The notes under the pieces were generated by a model. The model was not told where the DNA came from and made no database searches. It worked only from the letters and a program-made list of their open reading frames with translations. A stretch of DNA of 64,000 bases from an uncultured Victivallaceae bacterium (lineage in GTDB: Bacteria > Verrucomicrobiota > Lentisphaeria > Victivallales > GWF2-50-93). Location of the stretch: NCBI GenBank assembly GCA_964636325.1, contig CAZWRV010000019.1, positions 10,471 through 74,470 of the forward strand. The letters are read 5' to 3'. The position numbers and the translations under genes are program-made. Positions 4,748-54,740 of this stretch are shown one piece after another (positions within the stretch are counted from its first letter, which is position 1; each line of letters starts with the position of its first letter).

Positions 4748-6085
4748 TCACGGGTTGATCTTATCATCAAAATAACGCCTGAGGCCGTCTATTGCAACTC
4801 TTTCCTGGGACATAGAATCCCTGTCTCGGACGGTGACGGCCTGGTCGTCCTGCGACTGGAAGTCGTAGGTGACGCAGTATGGCGTGCCGATCTCGTCCTG
4901 GCGGCGATAGCGCTTGCCGATGCTGCCGGTGACGTCGAATTCGGCCCTGAACCGCTTCCGCATGTCCTTATATATGTTCTCTGCAGGCTCGGCAATCTTC
5001 TTCGCCAGCGGCAATATTGCGATCTGCACCGGCGCGACCTTTGCAGGAAACCTGAGGACAATCCTTAGATCCTCGTCCATCCCCTCCTTCTTGGTCTCCG
5101 CCCTGTCCTCGTCGTAGGAGTGGCAGATCAGCGCGAGGACGGTGCGGTCGACTCCGACCGAGGTCTCGACGACGACCGGCACGAGTTTTGAGTTGGTGGC
5201 CTGGTCGAAATATTCGAGGTTCTGCGCGGAGAACTCCTGGTGCCTGGACATGTCCCATGTGCCGCGGTGGTGGATGCCCTCCAGCTCGCCCCATCCGAAC
5301 GGGAAGCGGAACTCTATGTCGAGCGCGGCCTTCGCGTAGTGCGCCAGCGTCTCGTGCTCGTGTATCTTGAGCTCGTCATCCTTGAACTGGAGCAGTTCCC
5401 TGTAGTATTTTATCCGCTCCTCCCTCCAGAACTCGTACCAGCTCATGGACTCCTCGTCCTTGCAGAAGAACTCCATCTCCATCTGGCTGAACTCCCTGGA
5501 GCGGAAGGTGAAGTTGCGCGGGTTGATTTCGTTCCTGAACGCCTTCCCTATCTGGGCTATCCCGAAAGGGAGCGTGCGCCTGGCGGCGATGCGGACGAGA
5601 TGGAAGTCCACGAAGATCGGCTGGCAGGTCTCCGCCCTGAGGTAGGCGACGTGCTCCTCGTCGAAGACCGGGCCGACGAAGGTCTTCATCATCAGGTTGA
5701 ATTCGCGCGGCGGCGTCAGGTTCTTCGAGCCGCAGTTGGAGCACTTAGTCTGATCCTCCATCTGGTCCACGCGGAAGCGCGCCTTGCAGTCGCGGCAGTC
5801 CGTCATCATGTCGCCGAACTTGTCAAGATGCCCCGACGCCTTCCACACCATCGGATGGCATATTATCGTCGAGTCGAGGCCTTCGACGTTGTCCCTCGCC
5901 TCGACCATGTTGTGCCACCAGAGCTGTTCGACCGCCCGCTTGAGCGCCGTGCCGTAGGGGCCGTAGTCCCAGAAGCCGTTGATGCCGCCGTATATCTCCG
6001 AGCTCTGGAATATGAAGCCGCGCCGCTTGCACAGCGACACTATCTTGTCCATAAGTTCCGGATTCTTGCCGTCTTCTGTAGCCAT
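4748..6085 (-). CDS. glyQS: Glycine--tRNA ligase (alpha2 type)
   Basis: LCKRRGFIFQSSEIYGG, YLRAETCQ, GKAFRNEI, FRSREFSQMEMEFF, GSIGKRYRRQDEIGTP. Confidence 0.97.
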   Translation of the reverse strand: MATEDGKNPELMDKIVSLCKRRGFIFQSSEIYGGINGFWDYGPYGTALKRAVEQLWWHNMVEARDNVEGLDSTIICHPMVWKASGHLDKFGDMMTDCRDCKARFRVDQMEDQTKCSNCGSKNLTPPREFNLMMKTFVGPVFDEEHVAYLRAETCQPIFVDFHLVRIAARRTLPFGIAQIGKAFRNEINPRNFTFRSREFSQMEMEFFCKDEESMSWYEFWREERIKYYRELLQFKDDELKIHEHETLAHYAKAALDIEFRFPFGWGELEGIHHRGTWDMSRHQEFSAQNLEYFDQATNSKLVPVVVETSVGVDRTVLALICHSYDEDRAETKKEGMDEDLRIVLRFPAKVAPVQIAILPLAKKIAEPAENIYKDMRKRFRAEFDVTGSIGKRYRRQDEIGTPYCVTYDFQSQDDQAVTVRDRDSMSQERVAIDGLRRYFDDKINP

Positions 6086-7592: not shown

Positions 7593-9290
7593 TCATAAGC
7601 CACTTTGCCGTGAAAGCCTTTTTTCGACCTTTGCGATGTCGTCGAGAAGTTTTTTGAGGATTTGACGGTCTTCGTCCTTGTCTTCCATCATTATTTCCGC
7701 GGCTTTGGCGTGCATTACAGAGAGCCCCCAGAGATTGAGGCGGGTCTGTTCGTCGGCGCCGGAAGCCTTGGCCTCGGCGGCCGCCAGCGAATAGCATGCG
7801 GCAAGGTTCTTGTGCGCGGGCCAGTTTTCCGGTTCGACTTCGAGCGTCTTGAGCAATACGGGGCGTGCGTCCCTGTGCCTGCCCGCATCAATATAGACGG
7901 CGCCGAGGGTGTTTAGAACCCTCGGCTTGCGTGGGCTTTTCGCGGCGCAGTCCTCCCACAAGGAGATTTCATCCTTCCAAACCATGTTCCGTGAAAATGT
8001 GGCGGACACTAGCGTGGCGACATACGCGGCGAAGACGCATGCGGCGGAGCGACCGGCTCCGGCTCCGCGAAATCCGCATCTTCGCCATGCCAGCAGGACC
8101 ACGGCGGCGACAGCCATTATTATGCCGGGCGACGGGAGGTAAACTCTGTGCTCGAAGACCAGATCGGCGATAGGGACAAGACCCGACTCCGCCGATATTG
8201 TCGCGAAAAACCATAGGATGCCGAAAGCCGCAAGCCTGAGCTTCGGATCCCACCGCCCCCGAGATGTCCTTTGCCATGCGAAAAGGGCCGCGAGGATCAA
8301 GAAGGCCACAACAATCAGCGAGAAGATTACCGCCGGGTCGAGCAGTTCGTTCCTTGCCGGAAAATCATGTTCAAGGTTCTGGCCGTAAGGTAGAATCAGC
8401 AGCCTGAAGTAGAAAATTATTGCGGTCAGCCCGGTCAGGAAGTAGTCAGTCCTGGACATGTCAGTCAGGACTTTACCCCCGGCGAAGTCTCCGGGCACCC
8501 CGCTGCCGATCATGCCGATGCTCAGCGGAAGGAGGACGAGAAGGAGGTAGAACGGCACCAGAAGGAGCAGACGCCTGCCAAGCTTCCCCTCAAAGAAGAA
8601 CAGCTCCACAAGTGTGACCGCGAGCGGGATCGTATATGTGTTCTCCTTTGTCTTGACCGCAAGGAGCGCGCAGAGAAGCGAGCCCGCATACAGTCCTGCG
8701 GTTCTCAGTGAAATACCTTGTCCGCCCGGATCGGCCGCCATTCTTGCTTTGATATAAAGCATGCACGCCGACAGATAGAACATCGCCGCCAGCGATGCGA
8801 ATCGCTGGACTATGTATGTGACCGCCTGCGTCTGGACGGGATGGATCATGAATATGAGCGACGCGGCGAAAGCGATGATTCCTGCATCAGAGTCCTGACG
8901 CGGCGCACCGTTTTCCGCGGAATCCGCAGCGCCGGGAGGCATCCTGAGCATGGCCGGACACCTGAATAGTCCCATGACGAGGAAGTAGACTAGGATGGAA
9001 TTCACAAGATGGACGGCGAAGTTGAAGGCATGGAAGCCGGTTGTTGCTAAGCCGCCCAGCCACACATTGAATGCGAAGGAAAGGAAGCCGACAGGCCTGA
9101 GTCTCAGCTCCTGGGCAATATCCGGCGCAGGAGCCGAGTCGGGGAACAATATCATCCATGGATCAAGCATCGCCGGATTGCAGACGATATTGCGGAAGTC
9201 GTCGAAATGAAACGAGGCGAAGAACGAGTTGGAATATGCAAGCGCTCCCGCGACGGATATCACCGCAATGTGCGCGTATGAATTCAGCAA
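7593..9290 (-). CDS. TMTC-like multi-TM GT-C glycosyltransferase with C-terminal TPRs
   Basis: FHFDD, RPV, HPVQTQAVTYIVQR, KENT, FEHRVYLPS and RNMVWKDEISLWED motifs, plus a TPR-like tail. Confidence 0.8.
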   Translation of the reverse strand: MLNSYAHIAVISVAGALAYSNSFFASFHFDDFRNIVCNPAMLDPWMILFPDSAPAPDIAQELRLRPVGFLSFAFNVWLGGLATTGFHAFNFAVHLVNSILVYFLVMGLFRCPAMLRMPPGAADSAENGAPRQDSDAGIIAFAASLIFMIHPVQTQAVTYIVQRFASLAAMFYLSACMLYIKARMAADPGGQGISLRTAGLYAGSLLCALLAVKTKENTYTIPLAVTLVELFFFEGKLGRRLLLLVPFYLLLVLLPLSIGMIGSGVPGDFAGGKVLTDMSRTDYFLTGLTAIIFYFRLLILPYGQNLEHDFPARNELLDPAVIFSLIVVAFLILAALFAWQRTSRGRWDPKLRLAAFGILWFFATISAESGLVPIADLVFEHRVYLPSPGIIMAVAAVVLLAWRRCGFRGAGAGRSAACVFAAYVATLVSATFSRNMVWKDEISLWEDCAAKSPRKPRVLNTLGAVYIDAGRHRDARPVLLKTLEVEPENWPAHKNLAACYSLAAAEAKASGADEQTRLNLWGLSVMHAKAAEIMMEDKDEDRQILKKLLDDIAKVEKRLSRQSGL

Positions 9291-9364
9291 ACTTCCAAAC
9301 CTTGTAGCTCGATTCGGTTATACTCGCATGAATTCAGCAAACTATGCCCTTTTGCTGGTTCATG
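9276..9364. repeat. Family A hairpin variant: half arm (9276-9293) plus near-complete copy (9326-9364)
   Basis: GTATGAATTCAGCAAACT, then 32 bp, then GCATGAATTCAGCAAA-CTATGCCCT-TTTGCTGGTTCATG. Confidence 0.75.
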
Positions 9365-16533: not shown

Positions 16534-16574
16534 GTATGAATTCAGCAAACGACGCCCTTTTGCTGAATTCATAC
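16534..16574. repeat. Family A hairpin (perfect 16-bp stem) between convergent genes
   Basis: GTATGAATTCAGCAAA-CGACGCCCT-TTTGCTGAATTCATAC. Confidence 0.85.
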
Positions 16575-19534: not shown

Positions 19535-19568
19535 ATTGGGTTGTTGCTGTGCCGGGCCATTATTGGTC

Positions 19569-19600
19569 CGGCCGCGGTCGACCGCAATCGACTGCAGTCG
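19569..19600. repeat. 10-bp-period array (family B, CG-RYYGCRRY-CG), 3 units
   Basis: cg gccgcggtcg accgcaatcg actgcagtcg. Confidence 0.75.
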
Positions 19601-19615
19601 TTTCGGCCGGCAGGT

Positions 19616-19656
19616 GTAAATATTCAGTGAACTACGACCTTTCACTGAATATTTAC
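19616..19656. repeat. Family A hairpin (perfect 16-bp stem)
   Basis: GTAAATATTCAGTGAA-CTACGACCT-TTCACTGAATATTTAC. Its reverse complement differs from the 2160 copy at 2 positions. Confidence 0.9.
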
Positions 19657-24157: not shown

Positions 24158-25384
24158 ATGCAGTCCGAAAAGGAATTTCCCGTGAAATCCTCATATCATA
24201 AAGCTAAAGGATGCAGAAGCGTGACGCTCAAGGATGTGGCGGCGAAATGCGGCGTCAGCATGGTCACGGTGTCCGCGGCGCTGCGCGGCGACCGGCGGCA
24301 GGTCTGCGAGAAGACCGAACTCAAGATCAGGAAGATTGCCGCAAGGATGGGCTACGATCCGTCCGCCACGGCGTTTGCCCGGCGCCTGCGCTACTGCACT
24401 TCGTCAAAACGGATACTGAATCATGTGGTGGGGCTCGGCTTCGCCTGGGACTACATTAACAGCCCGTATTTCGCCAGGCTTTTCGAGGCGCTCGGCAAGG
24501 AGCTTACCAAGCACGGCTATTCGATACTGACCAACTGGGCGATGAACGCGGAAGATTCCAGGCTTCCGGCCTCCTTCGCCAGGGGCGAGGTGGACGGAGT
24601 CTTCCATGTGAGCGGGTCCAAGTCGGACAGGCTTCTGGACAGCCTGAGGAGGGAGGCTGGTTTCGGTATGCGACCGGTGGTTTCGATTTTTGAGAAGTTG
24701 CCGGGCTGCTCGAACGTCCTCGTGGACGACTATTCCGGCGGGCGCCAGATCGCCGAGCACCTGCTGCGGATGGGGCACCGTTCATGGCTCTATCTTGAAT
24801 CCGGCAACTACCAGAACGACCAGAGGATGAGGGGGATGAGGGACGCGCTTGAGGCGGCAGGACTGGACGGCGGCGCTCTTCATCCGGTCTTCTACAACAT
24901 TCTTTCGCAGGGACGGTCACTGGCGTCGCTTAAGGAGCAGATCGAGGCGTTTCCCGAATCAACGGCGATCTACTGTGCTAACGATGCGAATGCGGTCAGG
25001 ATACACAACTGGCTGGGCGAGATCGGCCTCCGCGTTCCACAAGACATCTCGATAATCGGATATGACAACACTCATGAAATCCACGACAGGCATGGAGTCA
25101 ATATGCTGACTACGGTCGAGATTCCGCTCGAGGAGGCGGGCCGGGCGGCCGCGGAACTGATGGTCTCCCGCATCGAGGGCCGGGAGCAGGAGGACAGGGA
25201 TGTGACGCTTCCAGTAAAGCTTGTCGCCCGCTCTTCGGTGGCCGGATCCGCAGCCGGATTGCAGGACGACGACGGCTGCAATCGGTCGCAAGCGGCTCAA
25301 ACCTCCATCCAAGCGAATCGAGTTTCAGGAAGTGACCATCTGTGTGCCGCGGCGGACAGTTTTGTCGGTCGGAAACTTAAGTAG
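24158..25384 (+). CDS. LacI family transcriptional regulator (tail reads into intergenic repeats)
   Basis: VTLKDVAAKCGVSMVTVSAALRG HTH; TAIYCANDANA, LRVPQDISIIGYD, LTTV...LVARSS. Confidence 0.9.
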   Translation: MQSEKEFPVKSSYHKAKGCRSVTLKDVAAKCGVSMVTVSAALRGDRRQVCEKTELKIRKIAARMGYDPSATAFARRLRYCTSSKRILNHVVGLGFAWDYINSPYFARLFEALGKELTKHGYSILTNWAMNAEDSRLPASFARGEVDGVFHVSGSKSDRLLDSLRREAGFGMRPVVSIFEKLPGCSNVLVDDYSGGRQIAEHLLRMGHRSWLYLESGNYQNDQRMRGMRDALEAAGLDGGALHPVFYNILSQGRSLASLKEQIEAFPESTAIYCANDANAVRIHNWLGEIGLRVPQDISIIGYDNTHEIHDRHGVNMLTTVEIPLEEAGRAAAELMVSRIEGREQEDRDVTLPVKLVARSSVAGSAAGLQDDDGCNRSQAAQTSIQANRVSGSDHLCAAADSFVGRKLK

Positions 25385-25453
25385 CGCAGGTATTCCTACC
25401 TGCGATGCCGCAGACAGGAAGGTCTGCGTTACTTCAGGCGAGTTTCAGAGGAG
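25316..25453. repeat. Composite element (family C): conserved framework with internal hairpins
   Basis: AATCGAGTTTCAG..AGTG..[hairpin]..TTTGTCGGTCG-GAAACTTAAGTA-GCGCAGGTATTCCTACCTGCG..CAGACAGGAAGGTCTGCG-TTACTTCAGGCGAGTTTCAG-AGGAG. Homologous to 50114-50387. Confidence 0.8.
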
Positions 25454-28991: not shown

Positions 28992-29033
28992 CGATTGCAT
29001 TCGAATGCGGTCGGCCGCAATCGATTGCAGTCG
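28992..29033. repeat. Family B 10-bp array, 4 units
   Basis: cg attgcattcg aatgcggtcg gccgcaatcg attgcagtcg. Confidence 0.75.
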
Positions 29034-29061: not shown

Positions 29062-29856
29062 ATGCATACGAAAACATGTCGGCGCCTGGCAGGTCATCCA
29101 AAGGGCTTTACCCTTATAGAGTTACTCGTCGTCATCGCGATAATCGCGATACTCTGCGCGATGCTGCTGCCCGGACTGAGGAAGGCAAGGGACGCCGCAA
29201 AGCAGAAGGACTGCTCATCGAAGCAGAGGCAGATACTGATTGCAGGAGTCGCCTACGGCAACGACTTCGACGGCTACCTTATGCCGAATGCAGGAGGTTC
29301 AGGCGATTACTGGGGGCAGATCATTGTCACTGACGCTTGGGGCGTTCCGACTCCGAAGGGCATGGGTATTCTGATGGGCAACAACTACCTGCCAATGTCC
29401 TGCGGAGCTGTCCTCTGGTGCACCGGATTCGAGGTGGACAATGCCGCCGCCGACGCCAGCAGGTATACCGGCTTCATAGAAAGGCAGAACAAAGGTTTTT
29501 TTGGCCCATCCGGCCTGAACGACTACACATGGTCGCCGTATTCGTTCAGTGTGAGCGCTCGTTATGGAGGGCCTGCATGCGCCAGGCTTGGCGACAAGTA
29601 TCTGAATAATTATCCATGCCTGATTTCGTGCACGGGTTTCGCATACATGGCATATGCCTACCGAAATGCATATCCAGGTTATTGCGGTGGAAAACCGCAC
29701 GGGTTAAGCGGCTGTAACTTCGGCTTCGTGGACGGACGTGTCCAATTTTATACGATGAAGTGGATTCTGTACAATTCCGGCGGGAGGTTCTGGGGGAATC
29801 TCACCCGTGAAACAGAGCCATGGTATTGGAGAAGCGGCAAGTTCAACGAGATGTGA
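29062..29856 (+). CDS. Prepilin-type N-terminal cleavage/methylation + H-X9-DG domain protein
   Basis: RBS GGAGG; [30 protein letters not shown]; [15 protein letters not shown]. Confidence 0.88.
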
Positions 29857-29863
29857 TTTCAGA

Positions 29864-29885
29864 CGACTGCGGCCGAGCGCAGGCG
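29864..29885. repeat. Family B array, 2 units
   Basis: cg actgcggccg agcgcaggcg. Confidence 0.55.
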
Positions 29886-29917
29886 AATGTTTCAGTAAAT
29901 TATTTTGGAGGTAAAAG

Positions 29918-33850: not shown

Positions 33851-33861
33851 AAACCAAAAAT

Positions 33862-33885
33862 GCGACTGCGGCCGGCCGCAGTCGC
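33862..33885. repeat. Family B array, perfect 24-bp palindrome
   Basis: GCGACTGCGGCCGGCCGCAGTCGC. Confidence 0.75.
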
Positions 33886-33913
33886 GTGCTATCAAAACAG
33901 ATATAGGAGGAGT

Positions 33914-36030: not shown

Positions 36031-36039
36031 ATAAAAATG

Positions 36040-36079
36040 ACTGCGGTCGATTGCGGCCGTTCGCGGTCGGCTGCGACCG
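36040..36079. repeat. Family B array, 4 units
   Basis: actgcggtcg attgcggccg ttcgcggtcg gctgcgaccg. Confidence 0.75.
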
Positions 36080-39984: not shown

Positions 39985-41007
39985 TTATTTGTTGAATCCG
40001 GGCTGGCCTTTGGCGGCGTCGACGAACGCCAGGATGTTATCGAGCGGGACGTCTCCTTCGACCGCATGTGCAGGCGCGAAGATATATCCGCCCCTGAGTC
40101 CCTTTTTCAAGAGCTTGTCGCTCTCGTTTCTCACTTCTTCCACGGAGCCCTTCGGGAGGGTCTGCTGGGTTGAAAGGCCCCCGTGGAACGCCAGCCTGCC
40201 GTGATACTTGTCCATCAACGCGAAGACGTCCATGACTTCCGGCTGGAAGGGATTGAAGCAGTTGAGGCCGATTTCTATGAGTTCGTCGAAGAGCTCGTCG
40301 ACGTCGCCGCAGGAATGGATGAAGACTTTCTTGCCTGCGGAGCGGACCTCTCCGTAGGCCCGTGCCAGGTGCGGTTTGATGAAGGTCCGCCAGATCTCCG
40401 GGCCCATCTGGAGTCCGATCTGCTGGCCCCAGTCGTCGCCGAAATAGACGGCGTCGACGTCCAGCTTGACGGCCCTCCTCACAAGTTCGACGTTGAAGTC
40501 GGTGATGCGGCGCAAAAGTTCCTCGACGAAGTCGGGGTGCTCGATGAAGTCCATCATGAGGTTTTCCATTCCTCGGAGAGTCCAGGCGCGTTCGTAGAGC
40601 GAGAATCCGATGGAGTAGACGCGGTATCTTTCCTGCGCGTTTTTTGATTTCAGGCCGTCGACTCCGCCCCAGAAGACCTGATCGTCTGGATCCGGAAATG
40701 AATAGCCGCGCAGTGACGGCTCGGGCAGGACGCAGCCCCTTACGATTCCGATGTCCTTGTCGACGCTCTTGTCCCAGACTACGCCGAAGACGTCCCTGAC
40801 GCAGCCGCCGCCGATGTCCTTGAAGAATCCTACGCCTCCCCCGATCCCGTGGATATGCGGCTGCAGGAAAGGATCAATATCCCTGGTTCCGAAATGTTCC
40901 TGCAGCATTTCCGCCGGCTCCTTGGTGAAAGCGAAGCTCCACGGCGTATAGGGGACGTCCTTCGATTCGACGGCAAGCTTTACTACATCCCTCTTTGGCA
41001 TCTTCAT
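39985..41007 (-). CDS. URO-D/MtaA-CmuA-fold protein (paralog 1, HSCG motif)
   Basis: FGDDWGQQ, KVFIHSCGDV, GGLSTQQTL, GGYIFAPAHAV; RBS GGAGGA. Confidence 0.85.
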   Translation of the reverse strand: MKMPKRDVVKLAVESKDVPYTPWSFAFTKEPAEMLQEHFGTRDIDPFLQPHIHGIGGGVGFFKDIGGGCVRDVFGVVWDKSVDKDIGIVRGCVLPEPSLRGYSFPDPDDQVFWGGVDGLKSKNAQERYRVYSIGFSLYERAWTLRGMENLMMDFIEHPDFVEELLRRITDFNVELVRRAVKLDVDAVYFGDDWGQQIGLQMGPEIWRTFIKPHLARAYGEVRSAGKKVFIHSCGDVDELFDELIEIGLNCFNPFQPEVMDVFALMDKYHGRLAFHGGLSTQQTLPKGSVEEVRNESDKLLKKGLRGGYIFAPAHAVEGDVPLDNILAFVDAAKGQPGFNK

Positions 41008-41149
41008 TGAGTCCTCCTTTTGCATATCTTTCTTATGGCCATTATATCCTTATTGCATCGGAGCCAAGATACTGCTGGAAACGCCGTTCCGGAATGGACA
41101 TAGGGGCTTTAAGCATGGACATTTGTGCAGAATGAGCAATATTATGTCC

Positions 41150-42807: not shown

Positions 42808-42820
42808 ACGGATATAATTC

Positions 42821-42845
42821 TTATAAAGCAGTATTATATTATCAT
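42821..42845. promoter_or_regulatory. 25-bp motif shared with 49979-50003 (candidate AraC-type site)
   Basis: TTATAAAGCAGTATTATATTATCAT vs TTATGAAGCAGTGTTATATTATCAT (23/25 identical). Confidence 0.55.
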
Positions 42846-46508: not shown

Positions 46509-47618
46509 TTATCCTCCTAGAACTTGGCGTTTGATATTCATATAATATTGGAAATCCGCAAATGAGATGTCCGGCGGTATAGCGTGGTCGATCCATGGAA
46601 TGTATCCTCCTCCGCGGATGACTGGTGCGAGCCTGGCGAGTTCCTTGTCAATCGCCTTCGGTCCTTTGGCAATCACTCGCTTGTCGACTCCGCCGACCAT
46701 GCAGAACTTCCTTCCATATTTCTTCCGCATTGCCACGGGATCCATCCCTGCCGCGACCTCCATCGGGTTGAATCCGTCCACGCCCGCCTCGAGGAACAGC
46801 GGGATCAACGCCTCGAAATCCCCGTCAGTGTCTACGATGGCGATCCTTATGCCGCAGTCTTTGAGAAACTTGATGTATCTACGGTAATGGTGGAGAAAAA
46901 ATTCCCCGAAGATGTTCGGGCCGATGAGCGGTCCCCCCTTGCCTGCGAGATCCTCATGTATGATGATGTAGTCGAACCGGACGTCGTTCAGCGCCCTCTC
47001 ATACAGCCTGATGATGTAGTCGCAGAGGAACTCAAGGCAGTCCTTGACGAGGACAGGATCGTCGTAGAACATATATGAGAGACGTTCCGTTCCGATCCAG
47101 GTGCGCAGCATGCTGTAGAATCCGAAGTCGCCCCATATCTGGTTGATGCAGACAGGATTCTCCGAGACGCGCGCTCTTTCCACGAATGAATCCCAGTCAT
47201 TGGGATAACGGGCTTCCAACCCGCCTTCGTAGCGCCTGCGCATCTCCCCGAAGCTTGCACGGTTCTTGACGGCGAAGTCGATGTAGTGGTCCATGCAGAT
47301 GCTCGTATATTTGCCGTCGACCTTCAACCCTTGGCGCGTGCGGCCGAAAGAGTCGATGAAGTAAAGATATTCCGGCGTCTCGCTCAGAATCCTGTGTTCA
47401 AATTGCGGAAGGGGGCCGGACGGATTAATTCCGGTTGCCAGGCATCCGTCCAGGTTGAAATATTTGTTTCCGGCCAGGAAGCATCCGTCGAGATCGGCTG
47501 GAGCGCCTTCGCGGATCCAGCGTTCCCGGGTCTGGCCCCAGAGGCCGATTTCCAGGTTCGGAACCCGGTCCACGGCCTTGAACTGAAGCGTGTTGACAAA
47601 ACGTTCCTTAGGTGTCAT
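46509..47618 (-). CDS. URO-D/MtaA-CmuA-fold protein (paralog 2, DTDG motif)
   Basis: MTPKERF...VDRVP, HEDLAGKGGPLIGP, IVDTDGD, GGVDKR, GGYIPWIDHAIPPDIS. Confidence 0.85.
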   Translation of the reverse strand: MTPKERFVNTLQFKAVDRVPNLEIGLWGQTRERWIREGAPADLDGCFLAGNKYFNLDGCLATGINPSGPLPQFEHRILSETPEYLYFIDSFGRTRQGLKVDGKYTSICMDHYIDFAVKNRASFGEMRRRYEGGLEARYPNDWDSFVERARVSENPVCINQIWGDFGFYSMLRTWIGTERLSYMFYDDPVLVKDCLEFLCDYIIRLYERALNDVRFDYIIIHEDLAGKGGPLIGPNIFGEFFLHHYRRYIKFLKDCGIRIAIVDTDGDFEALIPLFLEAGVDGFNPMEVAAGMDPVAMRKKYGRKFCMVGGVDKRVIAKGPKAIDKELARLAPVIRGGGYIPWIDHAIPPDISFADFQYYMNIKRQVLGG

Positions 47619-49870: not shown

Positions 49871-50113
49871 CGCATCACCTTCATGTGTTTTATTATCATT
49901 TATATTATTCGGGCGGAGGAATATCCGCGCATGTATAAAACGTATAAGAAGCTTCCTTGATGTCCATGTGTAATCTTATTATGAAGCAGTGTTATATTAT
50001 CATATTTCAGATTTCCTGAGCGTAAGTCTCTACGCGGCGGAAGTTCCCGCCGCCGAGAAGACGGTTGAATAGAATTCAACTCTCCATCCGCCGGTCGGCG
50101 GATATAATAAAAC

Positions 50114-50387
50114 AATCGAATTTCAGAGTAGTGGCTATCTGCGGAGCTCGCAGTATTGTCGATGTGAAACTCGAAGTACGCGCTCGATCCGAGAGCGGCC
50201 TGACATAAAGAATGTCGCACTCGGATCGTGCGACGTACTTGAGGCAAGTTTCAGGAGAGTGCCTCTCCCCGAGCGCGAAACGCCTCGGGGTTCTGTCGGT
50301 CAGAAACTCGAAGTAGCGCAGGTATTCCTACCTGCGGATTGCGCAGACAGGAATGTCTACGCCACTTCGAGGCGAGTTTCAGAGGAG
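50114..50387. repeat. Family C composite element, two tandem units with different internal hairpins
   Basis: GAAACTCGAAGTA at 50166 and 50303; TACTTGAGGCAAGTTTCAG at 50236 and CACTTCGAGGCGAGTTTCAG at 50363; distinct hairpins between the constant blocks. Confidence 0.8.
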
Positions 50388-50413
50388 GTGGCGCCAATAG
50401 GGGAAGAGGCGTT

Positions 50414-51433
50414 TCAGCGACGGCGCAGTTCCTGGAAGCATTCGTCGTAGAAGAGCGCGGCTTCGACGGGGGTGTTGTGCGGTATCATGTTTGTGACGCC
50501 CATGAAGAATCCCGGGCATTGCTTCCCGATCGTCATGCATCTTTCGACCTCCGCGCGGATTTCAGCGCGGTTGCCGCGCAGTAGGATGCGTGTGTCGGCG
50601 TTCCCGATGAAGAAGTGAGTCCTTCCGTAGCGTTCAGCCACCCGGCTCATGTCCGTGAGGGGCTCCATGAAGAATCCGTGAGCGCCGGTGCCGGCGACGT
50701 CGTCGATGAACTCGGTGTAGTCGCCGTCGCTTAGGAACAGCACCTTCTTGCCTGCGTCGATCAGCGGCGCATAGAGCTTCTTCAGGTTCGGGAAGATATA
50801 TTTCCGGTAGAATCCAGGCGCGAATATCGCACCCTCGGTCCAGACTATGTCGTCGTGGCTCGCGATGAGAGGCGCGTCGCATTCGGCCATGGCGTTGTAG
50901 TATTGCTGCATCCAGGAGCCGTAGCGATTGAGGATTTCGCCGAATCCGTCAGGATCCTGTCCGGCCATGGCGAGCAGCATCTCCCACCCGAAGACGTATA
51001 TGCATCCTGTGAGCAAGGTGATGTATGTGCCGGTCGAGCAGGCCGTGTTGGGATTGTCCTCGCAGACTTGGCGGTAATGGTTGTCGAAACGCTCCACCAG
51101 TGAGCGGTGATCCTTTTTCCCGAAAGTCTCCCACGGATCGAAGCGGAGAGCCGTTTCAATATCGACGAATGCCTCGCTTAGCAGAGGCTGGAAATCTACG
51201 GATCCCGCCTCGTATTCGGCGTGGCCCATCTGGGTGCGGCAGGCGGCAAGCTCGTCGGCATGCAGCATGGTCGAAGGAGTAAGATCATAATCCCATGCCT
51301 TGCGGAATGCACGGGAGGCCCGGCCGCGCTCTTCAGGAGGGCTCTCGGGCGTCACATGGATTCCGGTCACAGCCCCGACTAGTTCCCAGTGGCGGTCAGC
51401 ATCGAATTCGACGCGTGCGACTTGGTCCGTCAT
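50414..51433 (-). CDS. URO-D/MtaA-CmuA-fold protein (paralog 3, LSDG motif)
   Basis: HDDIVWTEGAIFAPGFYRKYIFP, KKVLFLSDGDY, GNADTRIL, GFFMGVTNMIPHNTP. Confidence 0.85.
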   Translation of the reverse strand: MTDQVARVEFDADRHWELVGAVTGIHVTPESPPEERGRASRAFRKAWDYDLTPSTMLHADELAACRTQMGHAEYEAGSVDFQPLLSEAFVDIETALRFDPWETFGKKDHRSLVERFDNHYRQVCEDNPNTACSTGTYITLLTGCIYVFGWEMLLAMAGQDPDGFGEILNRYGSWMQQYYNAMAECDAPLIASHDDIVWTEGAIFAPGFYRKYIFPNLKKLYAPLIDAGKKVLFLSDGDYTEFIDDVAGTGAHGFFMEPLTDMSRVAERYGRTHFFIGNADTRILLRGNRAEIRAEVERCMTIGKQCPGFFMGVTNMIPHNTPVEAALFYDECFQELRRR

Positions 51434-53440: not shown

Positions 53441-54153
53441 CTATTTCAATCGGGCCAGCTCAGCCCTGATTTTCATTGAGAGTCCTGCGATGTCATCCTT
53501 TCTGAGGTAGTCGCCTAGAGAATTCCCTATGTCCTTGTCAGAAATAACTTGAACTTTTGCCCTGAGAAAATCGAAGAATTGTTCGACGCCTGAGCCCTTG
53601 AAATAGTCTTCCTTGCGCACGAGTTTTGAGTAGCTGGGCTTTTTCAAGCGGCCCATCAGCGTTTTTATGTCCGGCCTAATTCCCATCCTAAGATAAAACC
53701 AGATGTCATAAATATCCCTAATCAGACGGCGTTCGTTCCACGCGGCCATCTTGTTGGATAGCGAAACTGACAAGTCTACGACCGGTATCAGGCGCGGAGG
53801 AAGATCATATTTTGCCGCCAGTTCCTTGTTAGAAACTATCTGGACCGGCACATCCATGGCGACCTTCGCCTCGATTTGTATTTTGGAGCCGCCAGCCTCC
53901 AAGGCGATCCGGAGGCATTTCGAGTTTAGCGAGTAATCAAGCTTGGCCCCTCCGATTTCTTCAAGCGCAGAAAGGATGTCCTTGACTATATCCTTCTTGG
54001 AATTGAATGGCACGAAGACATAGTCAAGATCATTCGTCATGCGCTCGCAGCCGAGGAACTGAGCGACATCCCGCCGCGCAGAACCGCCTTTCTGGCAAAC
54101 TTCCGTGCAAAGATGTCCATCACCTTGGCAAGCAAAGCCTCTTCCTTGATCAT
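53441..54153 (-). pseudogene. AbiEii/nucleotidyltransferase type IV toxin with 1-bp frameshift near 54059
   Basis: ATG at 54153 overlaps the antitoxin stop (ATGA). It reads MIKEEALLAKVMDIFARKFARKAVLRGGMSL, then continues in a shifted frame as FLGCERMTNDLDY...NKMAAWNERRLIRDIYD. Confidence 0.85.
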
Positions 54154-54740
54154 AAGCTCCAGACCTTCCTGAAGAATGAGACAAATCGCCGGTCATATTT
54201 TTTAAGATAATCCGATATCTTGCCGGGCTTGAGCATGGAGATACTGACATCGCTCTCCGGATCGAAAGAGAAACTCCTGCCCTTGAAATAAAAGTAGCAG
54301 ACATCAAGGAAGGCCTTCTCTGGTGTGGCATATTTGATCCCTTTGACGGTTTCAAAACCGAAAAAAAGGCGGGGGGTTATGCTGAGATGCTCGATGATCC
54401 CCATCTCGCAATTATAAGTTCTGGGCCGCCCGACTTTAACCGCCTGGATCCTGCGGGCTGGGATCGAACCAATGACAGCCTTTGCCGCCAGCACCGTTCC
54501 AGTGGAAACATATGAGTCGGGATTGATACGCGAACTTATTGCCTCAAGCGAAGTTCCCGGCAAAGCATAAATTCCCCGCTTGACCCTGACCAGCACCTTT
54601 TCCTTGACCGCCGATTCAAGCTTCTTGAAGAGTGCAGCCTCGCTCTGGCCGCCAAAGATGACCTTCAGGTCAGGCATGGCCAGCACTCCGCCGAGTTCCG
54701 AAGCCCACTTTTCGATATCTTTTGTATCAGATGCTTTCAT
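54150..54740 (-). CDS. AbiEi-type type IV antitoxin (wHTH)
   Basis: LVRVKRGIYAL...INPDSYVS...ATPEKAFLDVCY. Confidence 0.85.
   Translation of the reverse strand: MKASDTKDIEKWASELGGVLAMPDLKVIFGGQSEAALFKKLESAVKEKVLVRVKRGIYALPGTSLEAISSRINPDSYVSTGTVLAAKAVIGSIPARRIQAVKVGRPRTYNCEMGIIEHLSITPRLFFGFETVKGIKYATPEKAFLDVCYFYFKGRSFSFDPESDVSISMLKPGKISDYLKKYDRRFVSFFRKVWSL

Follow-up and report, generated by a model that had tools for sequence, protein, structure and literature searches.

We analysed a 64-kb window (the whole stretch of DNA under study, 64,000 nucleotides of contig CAZWRV010000019.1) that carries three units of a hairpin-rich intergenic repeat, here called family C. Units A (50114-50254) and B (50239-50387) lie in tandem and overlap in a common block, TTGAGGCAAGTTTCAG, and unit C (25316-25453) lies at a second locus. 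Both loci are situated between same-strand genes, with the units in sense orientation at one (C) and antisense at the other (A/B), and the distance between the units and the stop codon of the upstream open reading frame (ORF) is 0 nt at one locus and 27 nt at the other. Unit C is found between a LacI-like and a HEAT-repeat gene, both on the plus strand, and the A/B array between two minus-strand genes, its last full unit ending 27 nt from the stop codon of a URO-D-like gene. We conclude, with a probability of about 0.72, that family C is a cluster of doublets of repetitive extragenic palindromes (REPs), resembling REPINs (REP doublets forming hairpins) and arranged like bacterial interspersed mosaic elements (BIMEs), and that it belongs to the GTAG-tagged class of REPs. 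Its particular REP and framework sequences have no description in the searchable literature; the class, one of selfish or semi-domesticated repeats, is already well known.

Tagged hairpin doublets joined by a conserved linker

When the 64 kb was searched with an nhmmer profile built from the three units, the matches were these three units only (E = 9e-34 to 5e-40). The three-unit alignment has a mean column identity of 72%, and its invariant blocks are CGA(G/A)TTTCAG, AGTG, TGTCG, GAAACT(CG)AAGTA, and ACTT..AGGC(G/A)AGTTTCAG. The 24-mer GTAGCGCAGGTATTCCTACCTGCG is identical at 25381 and 50313, and none of 100 shuffles contained a 24-mer of this kind. Except at a 5-nt bulge, the central block (GAAACTCGAAGTA) and the 3' block (TACTTCGAG-GCGAG-TTTC) are reverse complements of each other, and in the consensus fold the two blocks pair around that bulge; alternatively, the central GAAACTCG pairs with the upstream CGAGTTTC.

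The large hairpin cassette of units B and C consists of two inverted hairpins, 4-5 nt apart and with their tags outside. Each is a REP of 24 nt, built from a 4-nt tag, an 8-bp stem, and a 4-nt TTCC loop. REP1, on the plus strand, reads GTAG-CGCAGGTA-TTCC-TACCTGCG in both units, at 50313-50336 in unit B (followed by the spacer GATTG) and at 25381-25404 in unit C (followed by the spacer ATGC). REP2, on the minus strand, reads GTGG-CGTAGACA-TTCC-TGTCTGCG in unit B (50342-50365) and GTAA-CGCAGACc-TTCC-tGTCTGCG in unit C (25409-25432). In the family consensus doublet, GTAG-CGCAGGTA-TTCC-TACCTGCG faces GTAA-CGCAGACA-TTCC-TGTCTGCG; the two REPs have tag class and loop in common and differ in two stem pairs, both of them compensated. 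The cassette of unit A (50176-50238), as read from sequence and fold, has the same build with another pair, GTAC-GCGCTC-GATCCGA-GAGCGG on the plus strand (50176-50198) and GTAC-GTCGCAC-GATCCGA-GTGCGAC on the minus strand (50214-50238), which share tag and loop, differ in their stems, and are separated by an A/T-rich spacer of 15 nt. A copy related to this doublet is present in another metagenome, X3 (metagenomes are denoted by X and a number).

The tags lie within the constant AAGTA and TACTT blocks, and the doublet has inverted outward flanks, GAAACTCGAA on one side and TTC(G)AGGCGAGTTTC (TTCGAG(GC)GAGTTTC) on the other. What remains of the framework is a linker of ~66 nt, composed of AGGAGTG-N4, a small hairpin, and TT(N)TGTCGGTC(N), with complementary ends, CGAGTTTC and GAAACTCG. 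This linker joins the doublets tail to tail in the order REP1(+), 4-5 nt, REP2(-), 66-nt linker, REP1(+), and the tandem period is 137 nt from A to B and 128 nt from B to B in X3. Thus, the constant framework of the repeat is made of tags, flanks, and linker, and its variable hairpins are REP subtypes in mosaic; tandem doublets joined by conserved linkers make this a BIME-like array.

On the plus strand, the array opens with the left terminal block AATCGAATTTCAG (50114-50126), which has a counterpart, AATCGAGTTTCAG, at 25316-25328 and on the loose ends of other copies. The unit A linker (50127-50165), with the hairpin CTGCG-GAGCT-CGCAG (50139-50153) after GTAG/GTGG-CTAT, leads to the unit A central block, GAAACTCGAAGTA (50166-50178), which pairs with the upstream or the downstream CGAGTTTC. 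Beyond the unit A doublet, the block TTGAGGCAAGTTTCAG (50239-50254) closes unit A as its 3' block and opens unit B as its 5' block. The unit B linker (50255-50302) runs through GAGAGTGCCTCT, the hairpin CCCCGAG-CGCGAAACGC-CTCGGGG (50267-50290), and TTCTGTCGGTCA to the unit B central block, also GAAACTCGAAGTA (50303-50315), and after the doublet the 3' block TTCGAGGCGAGTTTCAGAGGAG (50366-50387) forms the right end of the last full unit. The sequence at 50388-50417 is probably the remnant of a third unit, holding a linker start, GTGGCGCC, identical to that of other copies (GTGGCG-TCTGGCG..) and, at 50406-50417, the block GAGGCG--TTTCAG; by chance, ~2.2 block-like matches would be expected in 128 kb, giving a probability of ~5e-4 for the position of the remnant.

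Unit C, also on the plus strand, begins with a left arm (..CCTCCATCC..) and the left terminal block AATCGAGTTTCAG (together 25290-25328), both within the C-terminal tail of the LacI-like ORF. Its linker (25329-25371) contains the hairpin CTGT-GTGCCGCGGCGG-ACAG (25340-25359) and then TTTTGTCGGTCG, its central block (GAAACTT-AAGTA, 25372-25383) is a 1-nt deletion variant, and its 3' block, TTCAGGCGAGTTTCAGAGGAG (25433-25453), ends in AGGAG (25449-25453).

In other copies, seen at loose contig ends, the small hairpin keeps its stem with changing sequence and free loops. Examples are CTGCGA-GAT-TCGCAG, CTGCG-AGAAC-CGCAG, CTGCGA-AAC-TCGCAG, CTGCGG-TGA-CCGCAG, CTGT/ACAG, CTGGCGG-GGAAGT-CCGCCAG, and CTGGCG-AGGAAAAT-CCGCCAG. 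Each small hairpin has GTGN 4 nt before it, at a fixed distance, and these hairpins may represent a third, weakly tagged type of REP. Over 12 related hairpins from the window, X1, and other genomes, stem pairing was retained in 97.9% of cells, 4/8 pairs were changed on both sides, and 0/500 shuffles reached the covariation score. The variant CGTGGACA/TGTCCGCG has both sides of one stem pair changed. At position 25421, unit C has G and all 29 other contigs there have T, which gives a perfect 8-bp consensus REP2 hairpin. The third tag base of REP1 (25383) is A in ~95% of the depth and G in ~5%, with no other tag variant of at least 5% listed, and one contig set reads AAGTGGCGCAGGTATTCC.

Part of this anatomy had been anticipated in an earlier note on the same DNA, which described constant blocks alternating with different hairpins in the three units and outer blocks inverted around a 5-nt bulge; the blocks, hairpins, and coordinates are borne out, as is the inversion by the alignment and the consensus fold. 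The array does contain the two full units described but is longer, with a probable third-unit remnant (50388-50417) and a repeated left arm (50050-50105). The small hairpins indeed differ among the three units, although not by free-running variation: each belongs to a subfamily, and the hairpin of unit B alone has ~50 times single-copy depth. The note was also correct about the doublets of B and C, whereas its "long CGATCCGAG/CTCGGATCG stem" in unit A is a pairing between the two loops of a doublet.

Copy number, dispersal, and competing explanations

The DNA of the window is present in hot-spring metagenome runs. We aligned metagenome contigs to the window and expressed depth as copy equivalents, the depth divided by that of the flanking single-copy DNA (~11x in X1 and ~15x in X2). 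The REP doublet of unit C reached 10,600-14,800x in X1 and up to 19,700x in X2, or ~1,000-1,300 copy equivalents, and the core of the unit B doublet (50313-50365) formed a plateau at 7,700x in X1 and 10,170x in X2. For the other parts, depths in X1 and X2, respectively, were 4,400-5,100x and 5,550-6,400x for the central block in its B variant (~420-480 copy equivalents), ~3,000x and ~4,500x for the 3' block (~280-300 copy equivalents, measured in unit C at 25440-25449), ~1,700x and ~2,200-2,400x for the TGTCGG part of the linker (~160 copy equivalents), and ~540x and ~570x for the small hairpin of unit B (~50 copy equivalents, with an exact 73-nt contig at depth 137). The unit C linker has 10-20 copy equivalents and the parts of unit A, including its doublet, have 3-13 (~3 for the linker); on the left side of unit C, depth climbs from 11x to 96-190x across 25290-25329. 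X13, a hot-spring run from 2017, has this genome at 3x and the doublet at 1,146x (~380 copy equivalents). Long contigs that end in or contain the element have a depth of 8.6-11.4x, the same as the window. We read these values as hundreds to about a thousand copies, to which other community members may add depth.

Between 18 and 25 contigs diverge exactly after CAGAGGAG (18 at 25453 for unit C, and 18 + 7 X1 contigs at 50387/50388 for the array), which defines the right end of the unit and indicates at least that many insertion contexts. The B-to-B tandem joint occurs in X3, and more linker-plus-doublet joints occur in X1 and X2. Exact unit B segments are also found in bioreactor, biogas, and microbial-mat metagenomes where the unique DNA of the window has no depth, indicating that the family is common to relatives elsewhere. 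Logan contigs of SRR12976788 and SRR12969846 (L035/L036) contain the exact HEAT-repeat gene and start 30 nt before its ATG, so assembly breaks at the repeat. These two were the sole contigs recovered with the HEAT-repeat protein, and a look-up of the URO-D-like protein found no record of it. The earlier note had proposed collecting further copies by means of the constant blocks; such scans gave 4 chance matches, in coding DNA, among GTDB representatives, 12 chance matches among JGI metagenome contigs, with the other blocks in none, and 0 matches in IMG/VR; the genome of the window is itself missing from all three collections. A blastn search against plasmids and phages gave no match, and a six-frame peptide query of 5.8 billion proteins found no spurious ORFs from inside the arrays. 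The breaking of short-read assemblies by these repeats is probably why the family has gone unseen in collections of metagenome-assembled genomes (MAGs) and metagenome contigs.

A further repeat, the left arm (50050-50105, plus strand), contains the palindromes GTTGAAT-AGA-ATTCAAC and TCCGCC-GGTC-GGCGGA and has a depth of ~550x against 11x for its flanks (~50 copy equivalents). In other copies the left block of family C follows ~12 nt on, and six X1 contigs and one X8 contig run from the left arm into ..AATCGAGTTTCAG... A short version, CTCCATCC, precedes unit C at ~25292-25315, and X3 and X8 contain variants, GGCGGAAT-TCT-ATTCCGCC, in which the stem changes are compensated.

The dispersal of the units might also be explained by a miniature inverted-repeat transposable element (MITE) that is independent of any REP-associated tyrosine transposase (RAYT), or by an element derived from IS200/IS605. 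The ~95-nt palindrome GAAACTCGAAGTAG...TTACTTCAGGCGAGTTTC would then be the element proper, in which the outermost 13-18 nt would serve a classical or IS200/IS605-type transposase as terminal inverted repeats or subterminal hairpins, and arrays would form because the right end recreates its own target (..TTTCAG). Consistent with this model, the inverted flanks reach beyond the REP tags and accompany ~300-480 copy equivalents, the right end is sharp, and the block-like right flanks (GAGGCG--TTTCAG at 50406 and GGAGTTTCA at 25450) could reflect a target preference. However, the doublet core is 2-4 times commoner than its flanks, indicating that the hairpins are the basic unit, and the tagged hairpin occurs alone in other genomes, which makes it a module independent of the family C framework. 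The ends of the units are direct repeats (CGAGTTTCAG) rather than the inverted ones of a MITE mobilised by a DDE transposase, neither the units nor the flanks of their doublets have target-site duplications at any of the three units, and the window encodes no transposase of any kind. We regard this alternative as quite unlikely.

The units could also be a structured non-coding or cis-regulatory RNA, in which the 5' or the 3' CGAGUUUC pairs with the central GAAACUCG, either as a switch acting on AGGAG or as a source of processed small RNAs. All units fold well below shuffles on both strands (z -3.0 to -7.4), the two helices are mutually exclusive, and AGGAG precedes an ATG by 5 nt in unit C (that of the HEAT-repeat gene) and by 7 nt in one X4 copy. 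For units B and C, the better fold is that of the strand read through from the upstream gene. For unit A, however, it is that of the strand that is not transcribed, mismatches and wobbles show no preference for either strand, and AGGAG is free in all predicted folds. Hundreds to a thousand copies are far above any riboswitch-like family per genome. The A/B array is antisense to both neighbours with no downstream gene on its own strand, and unit C overlaps the end of an ORF. No Rfam family was assigned to the units even at E up to 10, the best Rfam 15 models being eukaryotic microRNA and snoRNA models at E of at least 0.13; a promoter scan of the units found no sites above shuffles, a terminator scan found none above shuffles save one hairpin in the second REP of unit A (minus strand), and the unit sequence was in no RNA run. 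An RNA of this kind, put forward in the earlier note as a distinct structured family, is therefore very unlikely. A riboswitch or other element of a 5' untranslated region was rejected on the opposite gene orientations at the two loci, the copy number, and the lack of an Rfam match.

The three units could have a purely local origin, with one tandem duplication, a single further copy arisen by chance or gene conversion, and no family across the genome, as their number in the window and their absence from GTDB representatives, JGI metagenome contigs, IMG/VR, plasmids, and phages might suggest, but this is vanishingly improbable, being refuted by a depth of 100 to >1,000 times that of the flanks in four hot-spring runs, by the junctions on dozens of contigs with different flanks, and by the exact unit B segments in metagenomes that lack the unique DNA of the window.

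CRISPR arrays, attC sites, and retrons were also considered and rejected, since the repeat shows neither unique spacers nor attC cores or cassette ORFs, and genes for Cas proteins, an integrase, or a reverse transcriptase are absent from its surroundings, in agreement with the earlier view that the repeat fits neither CRISPR nor attC rules.

We file family C as a REP cluster because its features match the published description of GTAG-tagged REPs. These have an unpaired tag at one end, a 6-9-bp stem, and a short loop, with the tag in >90% of members, and their families comprise subfamilies split by complementary stem changes (Di Nocera, De Gregorio and Rocco 2013, PMC3733652). Head-to-head dimers, often heterodimers, fold separately or as one long hairpin; dimers with flanking DNA recur in tandem, forming clusters in which the spacers have complementary ends or small stem-loops; and REPs lie near the 3' end of the upstream ORF, with the TAG of the tag serving as stop codon (PMC3733652). 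REPs are known in the Planctomycetes-Verrucomicrobia-Chlamydiae (PVC) superphylum, where the head-to-head spacers of Opitutus terrae measure 1-2 bp (PMC3733652). In family C, the 24-nt hairpins fall within the 20-40 nt of REP stem-loops, the depth ratios exceed the >100 copies per genome typical of REPs (other community members may contribute), REP1 carries the unpaired GTAG-like tag and the partner REPs only partly do so, and at two loci the units are extragenic just downstream of ORFs and between same-strand genes, in keeping with the usual setting of REPs between unidirectional or convergent genes. REPs alternate with conserved linkers in tandem as in BIMEs, and the inverted doublet, the long hairpin, and the large near-identical population are features of REPINs. 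Of the readings offered in the earlier note, the REPIN/REP one is thus supported by inverted tagged doublets, hundreds of copies, many flanks, and a mosaic of REP types and linkers.

The correspondence to a described family, which that note named as grounds for refuting its reading, holds for the class (PMC3733652, PMC3333891) and not for the sequence. A literature search with the REP string returned only unrelated primer sequences, and the string is not in the text or supplements of PMC3733652; the 24 family consensus sequences in Figure 1 of that paper lie outside this comparison. Nor do the units resemble the enterobacterial BIME motif set (y, z1, z2; L, S, s, l, r, A, B; Escherichia coli consensus per PMC3333891), which places family C outside the enterobacterial BIME families. 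A candidate for a new class of RNA or mobile element is thereby explained by a well-studied kind of repeat.

Several observations weigh against this assignment. The partner REPs are tagged GTAA (consensus), GTGG (unit B), and GTAC (unit A) rather than GTAG, and GTAA and GTAC alter the fourth base, which is constant in the published degenerate forms. The depths are assembler word depths of short contigs and thus approximate only, and the doublet ratio, ~1,300 in X1 and X2, is lower (~380) in X13, a run with the genome at 3x. Moreover, ~1,000 copies spread evenly over a few Mb would put about ten in a 64-kb window, whereas this one has two high-copy doublets; either the copies are clustered or the depth comes partly from other community members. 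Some hairpins of the covariation set had been retrieved by a pattern in which both arms were fixed, the free tests being the second REPs of the window, one X1 variant, and L039b (from the hairpin scan described below). When 20 window ORFs were scanned against Pfam, no RAYT or Y1 transposase was detected, nor did a phmmer query with E. coli RayT find one among the window ORFs or in 61 fetched loci. RAYTs are usually single-copy. Direct signs of movement, such as an empty site or a polymorphism between strains, were not obtained. The GTDB genome with the closest relative of the URO-D-like gene (a Lentisphaerae MAG, 80% amino-acid identity) lacks the element and has a different downstream gene, and for the HEAT-repeat protein the pattern method found no GTDB relative with which to compare the site.

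E. coli TnpA_REP binds GTAG and the imperfect stem on single-stranded DNA, both being required for binding, cleaves at inverted REPs and linkers, and recombines them; this has been proposed to diversify and amplify BIME arrays, and BIME copy number varies (PMC3333891). By analogy, the hairpins of family C would form on single-stranded DNA, where their tag and stem would be recognised by a REP-associated tyrosine (HUH/Y1) transposase with a single gene at another place in the genome. Cleavage and strand transfer by this RAYT at inverted REPs or linkers would spread the units and repeat them in tandem, and slippage or unequal recombination between the direct CGAGTTTCAG blocks could also enlarge and reshuffle arrays, which would explain different hairpin subtypes in the same framework. 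The earlier suggestion that the element captures different REPs would account for the mosaic, and so would recombination between constant linker blocks. In the mRNAs of adjacent genes, the units might act as 3' stem-loops in mRNA end protection or attenuation.

Gene ends and other features of the window

Units of family C donate stop codons to two genes. The LacI-like ORF runs 23 codons into unit C and stops at the TAG of the GTAG tag (25382-25384), and the stop codon of the URO-D-like gene (TCA on the plus strand, 50414-50416) lies within the probable third-unit remnant as the TGA of CTGAAA. The tail of the LacI-like ORF (25243-25384) extends 47 codons past the end of the Peripla_BP_3 domain, the last 23 inside unit C, and the native C-terminus of this protein may have been replaced by the repeat. 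The position of AGGAG ahead of the HEAT-repeat ATG (25459) in unit C, together with one X4 flank, suggests that the terminal AGGAG could be used as a ribosome-binding site. Such donation of stop codons and of the AGGAG of unit C would be incidental to the spread of the repeat. Units placed at gene ends, with two stop codons and a possible ribosome-binding site, matter for genome annotation.

Neighbouring genes encode prepilin-type N-terminal proteins, GH2 and GH123 domains, LacI and AraC regulators, and three URO-D-like paralogues, a gene content that suggests a polysaccharide-degrading organism of the PVC type. The URO-D-like paralogues (39985-41025, 46509-47618, and 50414-51433) lie within 12 kb amid glycoside hydrolase and regulator genes, and two of them have in common a DNA stretch of 57 nt that is 70% alike. 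After its own URO-D-like gene, the Lentisphaerae MAG (L017, 2130-2390) has short intergenic A/T-rich repeats, GGAATATCCAA / TTGGATATTCC, that are unrelated to family C. An AbiEii-type nucleotidyltransferase toxin gene lies at 53441-54355 (Pfam PF08843, E = 1e-9). The only match in the window at the Rfam gathering score is a tRNA at 1765-1822 on the minus strand (RF00005, 31.6 bits, 58 nt), a weak and short match just past an ORF ending at 1758 that may be a truncated or unusual tRNA or a chance match.

The window contains further intergenic repeats. G+C-rich palindromes of the form GACTGCGG(T/C)CG / CGACCGCAGTC (for example, GCGACTGCGGCC-GGCCGCAGTCGC) occur at 19568-19603, 28992-29032, 29854-29892, 33856-33894, and 36035-36079, directly past stop codons and ahead of the next ribosome-binding site; they have no GTAG tag and look like a second REP or terminator-like family. 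Two long A/T-rich palindromes constitute further families of intergenic hairpin repeats: GTAAATATTCAGTGAA..TTCACTGAATATTTAC has two inverted copies, 95% alike, at 2160-2200 and 19616-19656, and ATGAATTCAGCAAA..TTTGCTGAATTCAT has three copies, at 9278-9357 and 16536-16565. A 28-nt A/T-rich motif, TTATTATGAAGCAGTGTTATATTATCAT, at 49976-50003 and 42818-42845 (89% alike), may be an operator or promoter element; its sites lie upstream of an ADP-ribosylglycohydrolase gene and between an unannotated gene and an AraC-type regulator gene.

The tagged hairpin in other phyla and relation to known systems

A scan for the tagged hairpin with the loop left free gave at least 25 loci, many of which are chance matches within coding sequence, one example being a conserved gene motif of Woeseiaceae. 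About 9 of the 25 loci listed are isolated, G+C-rich intergenic hairpins with the same tag and stem and similar pyrimidine loops, GT[AG]G-CGCAGGTA-(TTCC/TCCC/TCCT/TCT)-TACCTGCG. In all, the hairpin was seen in hosts of 34-59% G+C (L037, 6615-6638; L038, minus strand, ~818-900; L039, 1727 and 6068; L040; L053, 5861; L047; L054, 2452-2551; L058, minus strand, 5696-5830). In a MAG labelled Poribacteria (44% G+C), a solitary copy of the exact REP, tagged GTGG, lies 5 nt past a stop codon. An Acidobacteriaceae MAG has three tagged REPs in a row, the first of which supplies a TAG stop, and an Ignavibacteriaceae MAG (34% G+C) has a second copy 4.3 kb away with a compensated GGTC/GACC stem. The hairpin is also found on two contigs of Chloroflexia and in Microcoleus, and Chloroflexota have tandem 55-nt units, GTATCACAGATTGATTATCT-GTGG..GCG-ATAC. 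A search of Rfam with these hairpins from other phyla gave no match.

It is unusual for a REP stem to be identical in different phyla. It is conceivable, though we consider it unlikely, that a single REP type with identical tag and stem occupies distant phyla, owing to horizontal spread of a RAYT-REP system or to recognition of the hairpin by a conserved host factor, and that here it has been built into a three-hairpin module with defined ends that routinely donates stop codons and Shine-Dalgarno sequences. If this were true, the same tagged hairpin in several phyla would offer a handle on how RAYT-REP systems spread.

Among known systems, family C can be compared with Rfam RNAs, CRISPR arrays, and attC sites, which likewise present repeated, partly tandem intergenic hairpin units but differ in copy number and dispersed distribution; R''/L''-L'/R' attC cores are lacking here.

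Family C also resembles E. coli BIME-2 (REPs y and z2; S, s, l, and r linkers; Ton-Hoang et al. 2012, PMC3333891). Both have two REP types in alternating inversion, a short linker within the doublet and a long one between doublets, and units head to tail in variable number, and the generator proposed for BIME-2, cleavage by TnpA_REP at inverted REPs and linkers, might by analogy apply to family C. In contrast to BIME-2, family C has structured linkers, a period of 128-137 nt, and no sequence similarity to it, and no REPtron (a RAYT gene flanked by REPs) was seen in the window or the fetched loci. Enterobacterial BIMEs bind IHF, gyrase, or Pol I, which family C is not known to do.

In the REPINs of Pseudomonas fluorescens (Bertels and Rainey 2011, PMC3116915), as in family C, two inverted REPs make one long hairpin. 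Both form a large, near-identical population within a genome, with conserved flanks, remnant-like singleton REPs, and higher-order clusters. The spacer between the REPs is 4-15 nt here and is longer in SBW25. A REPIN-RAYT system is defined by its single-copy RAYT, whereas family C is likened to REPINs by architecture.

Also among the closest counterparts are the GTAG-tagged REPs (PMC3733652), including SMAG of Stenotrophomonas and GTAG-17/19/20 of O. terrae. The likeness covers the GTAG/GTGG tag, the 8-bp G+C-rich stem, and the 4-nt pyrimidine loop; head-to-head heterodimers with a short spacer (here 4-5 nt), as in O. terrae; and tandem dimers with flanks and structured spacers that are positioned after an ORF and supply TAG as its stop. 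Family C differs in the GTAA tag of the partner REP and the GTAC tag of unit A, both with the fourth base changed; in its long (~66 nt), strongly conserved tail-to-tail linker with a third hairpin that has GTGN 4 nt before it; and in its host, an uncultured Lentisphaerae-like hot-spring bacterium. Family C would thus add a REP/BIME-like system to a poorly known PVC/Lentisphaerae-like hot-spring lineage, one with an unusually heavy load of up to about a thousand doublets.

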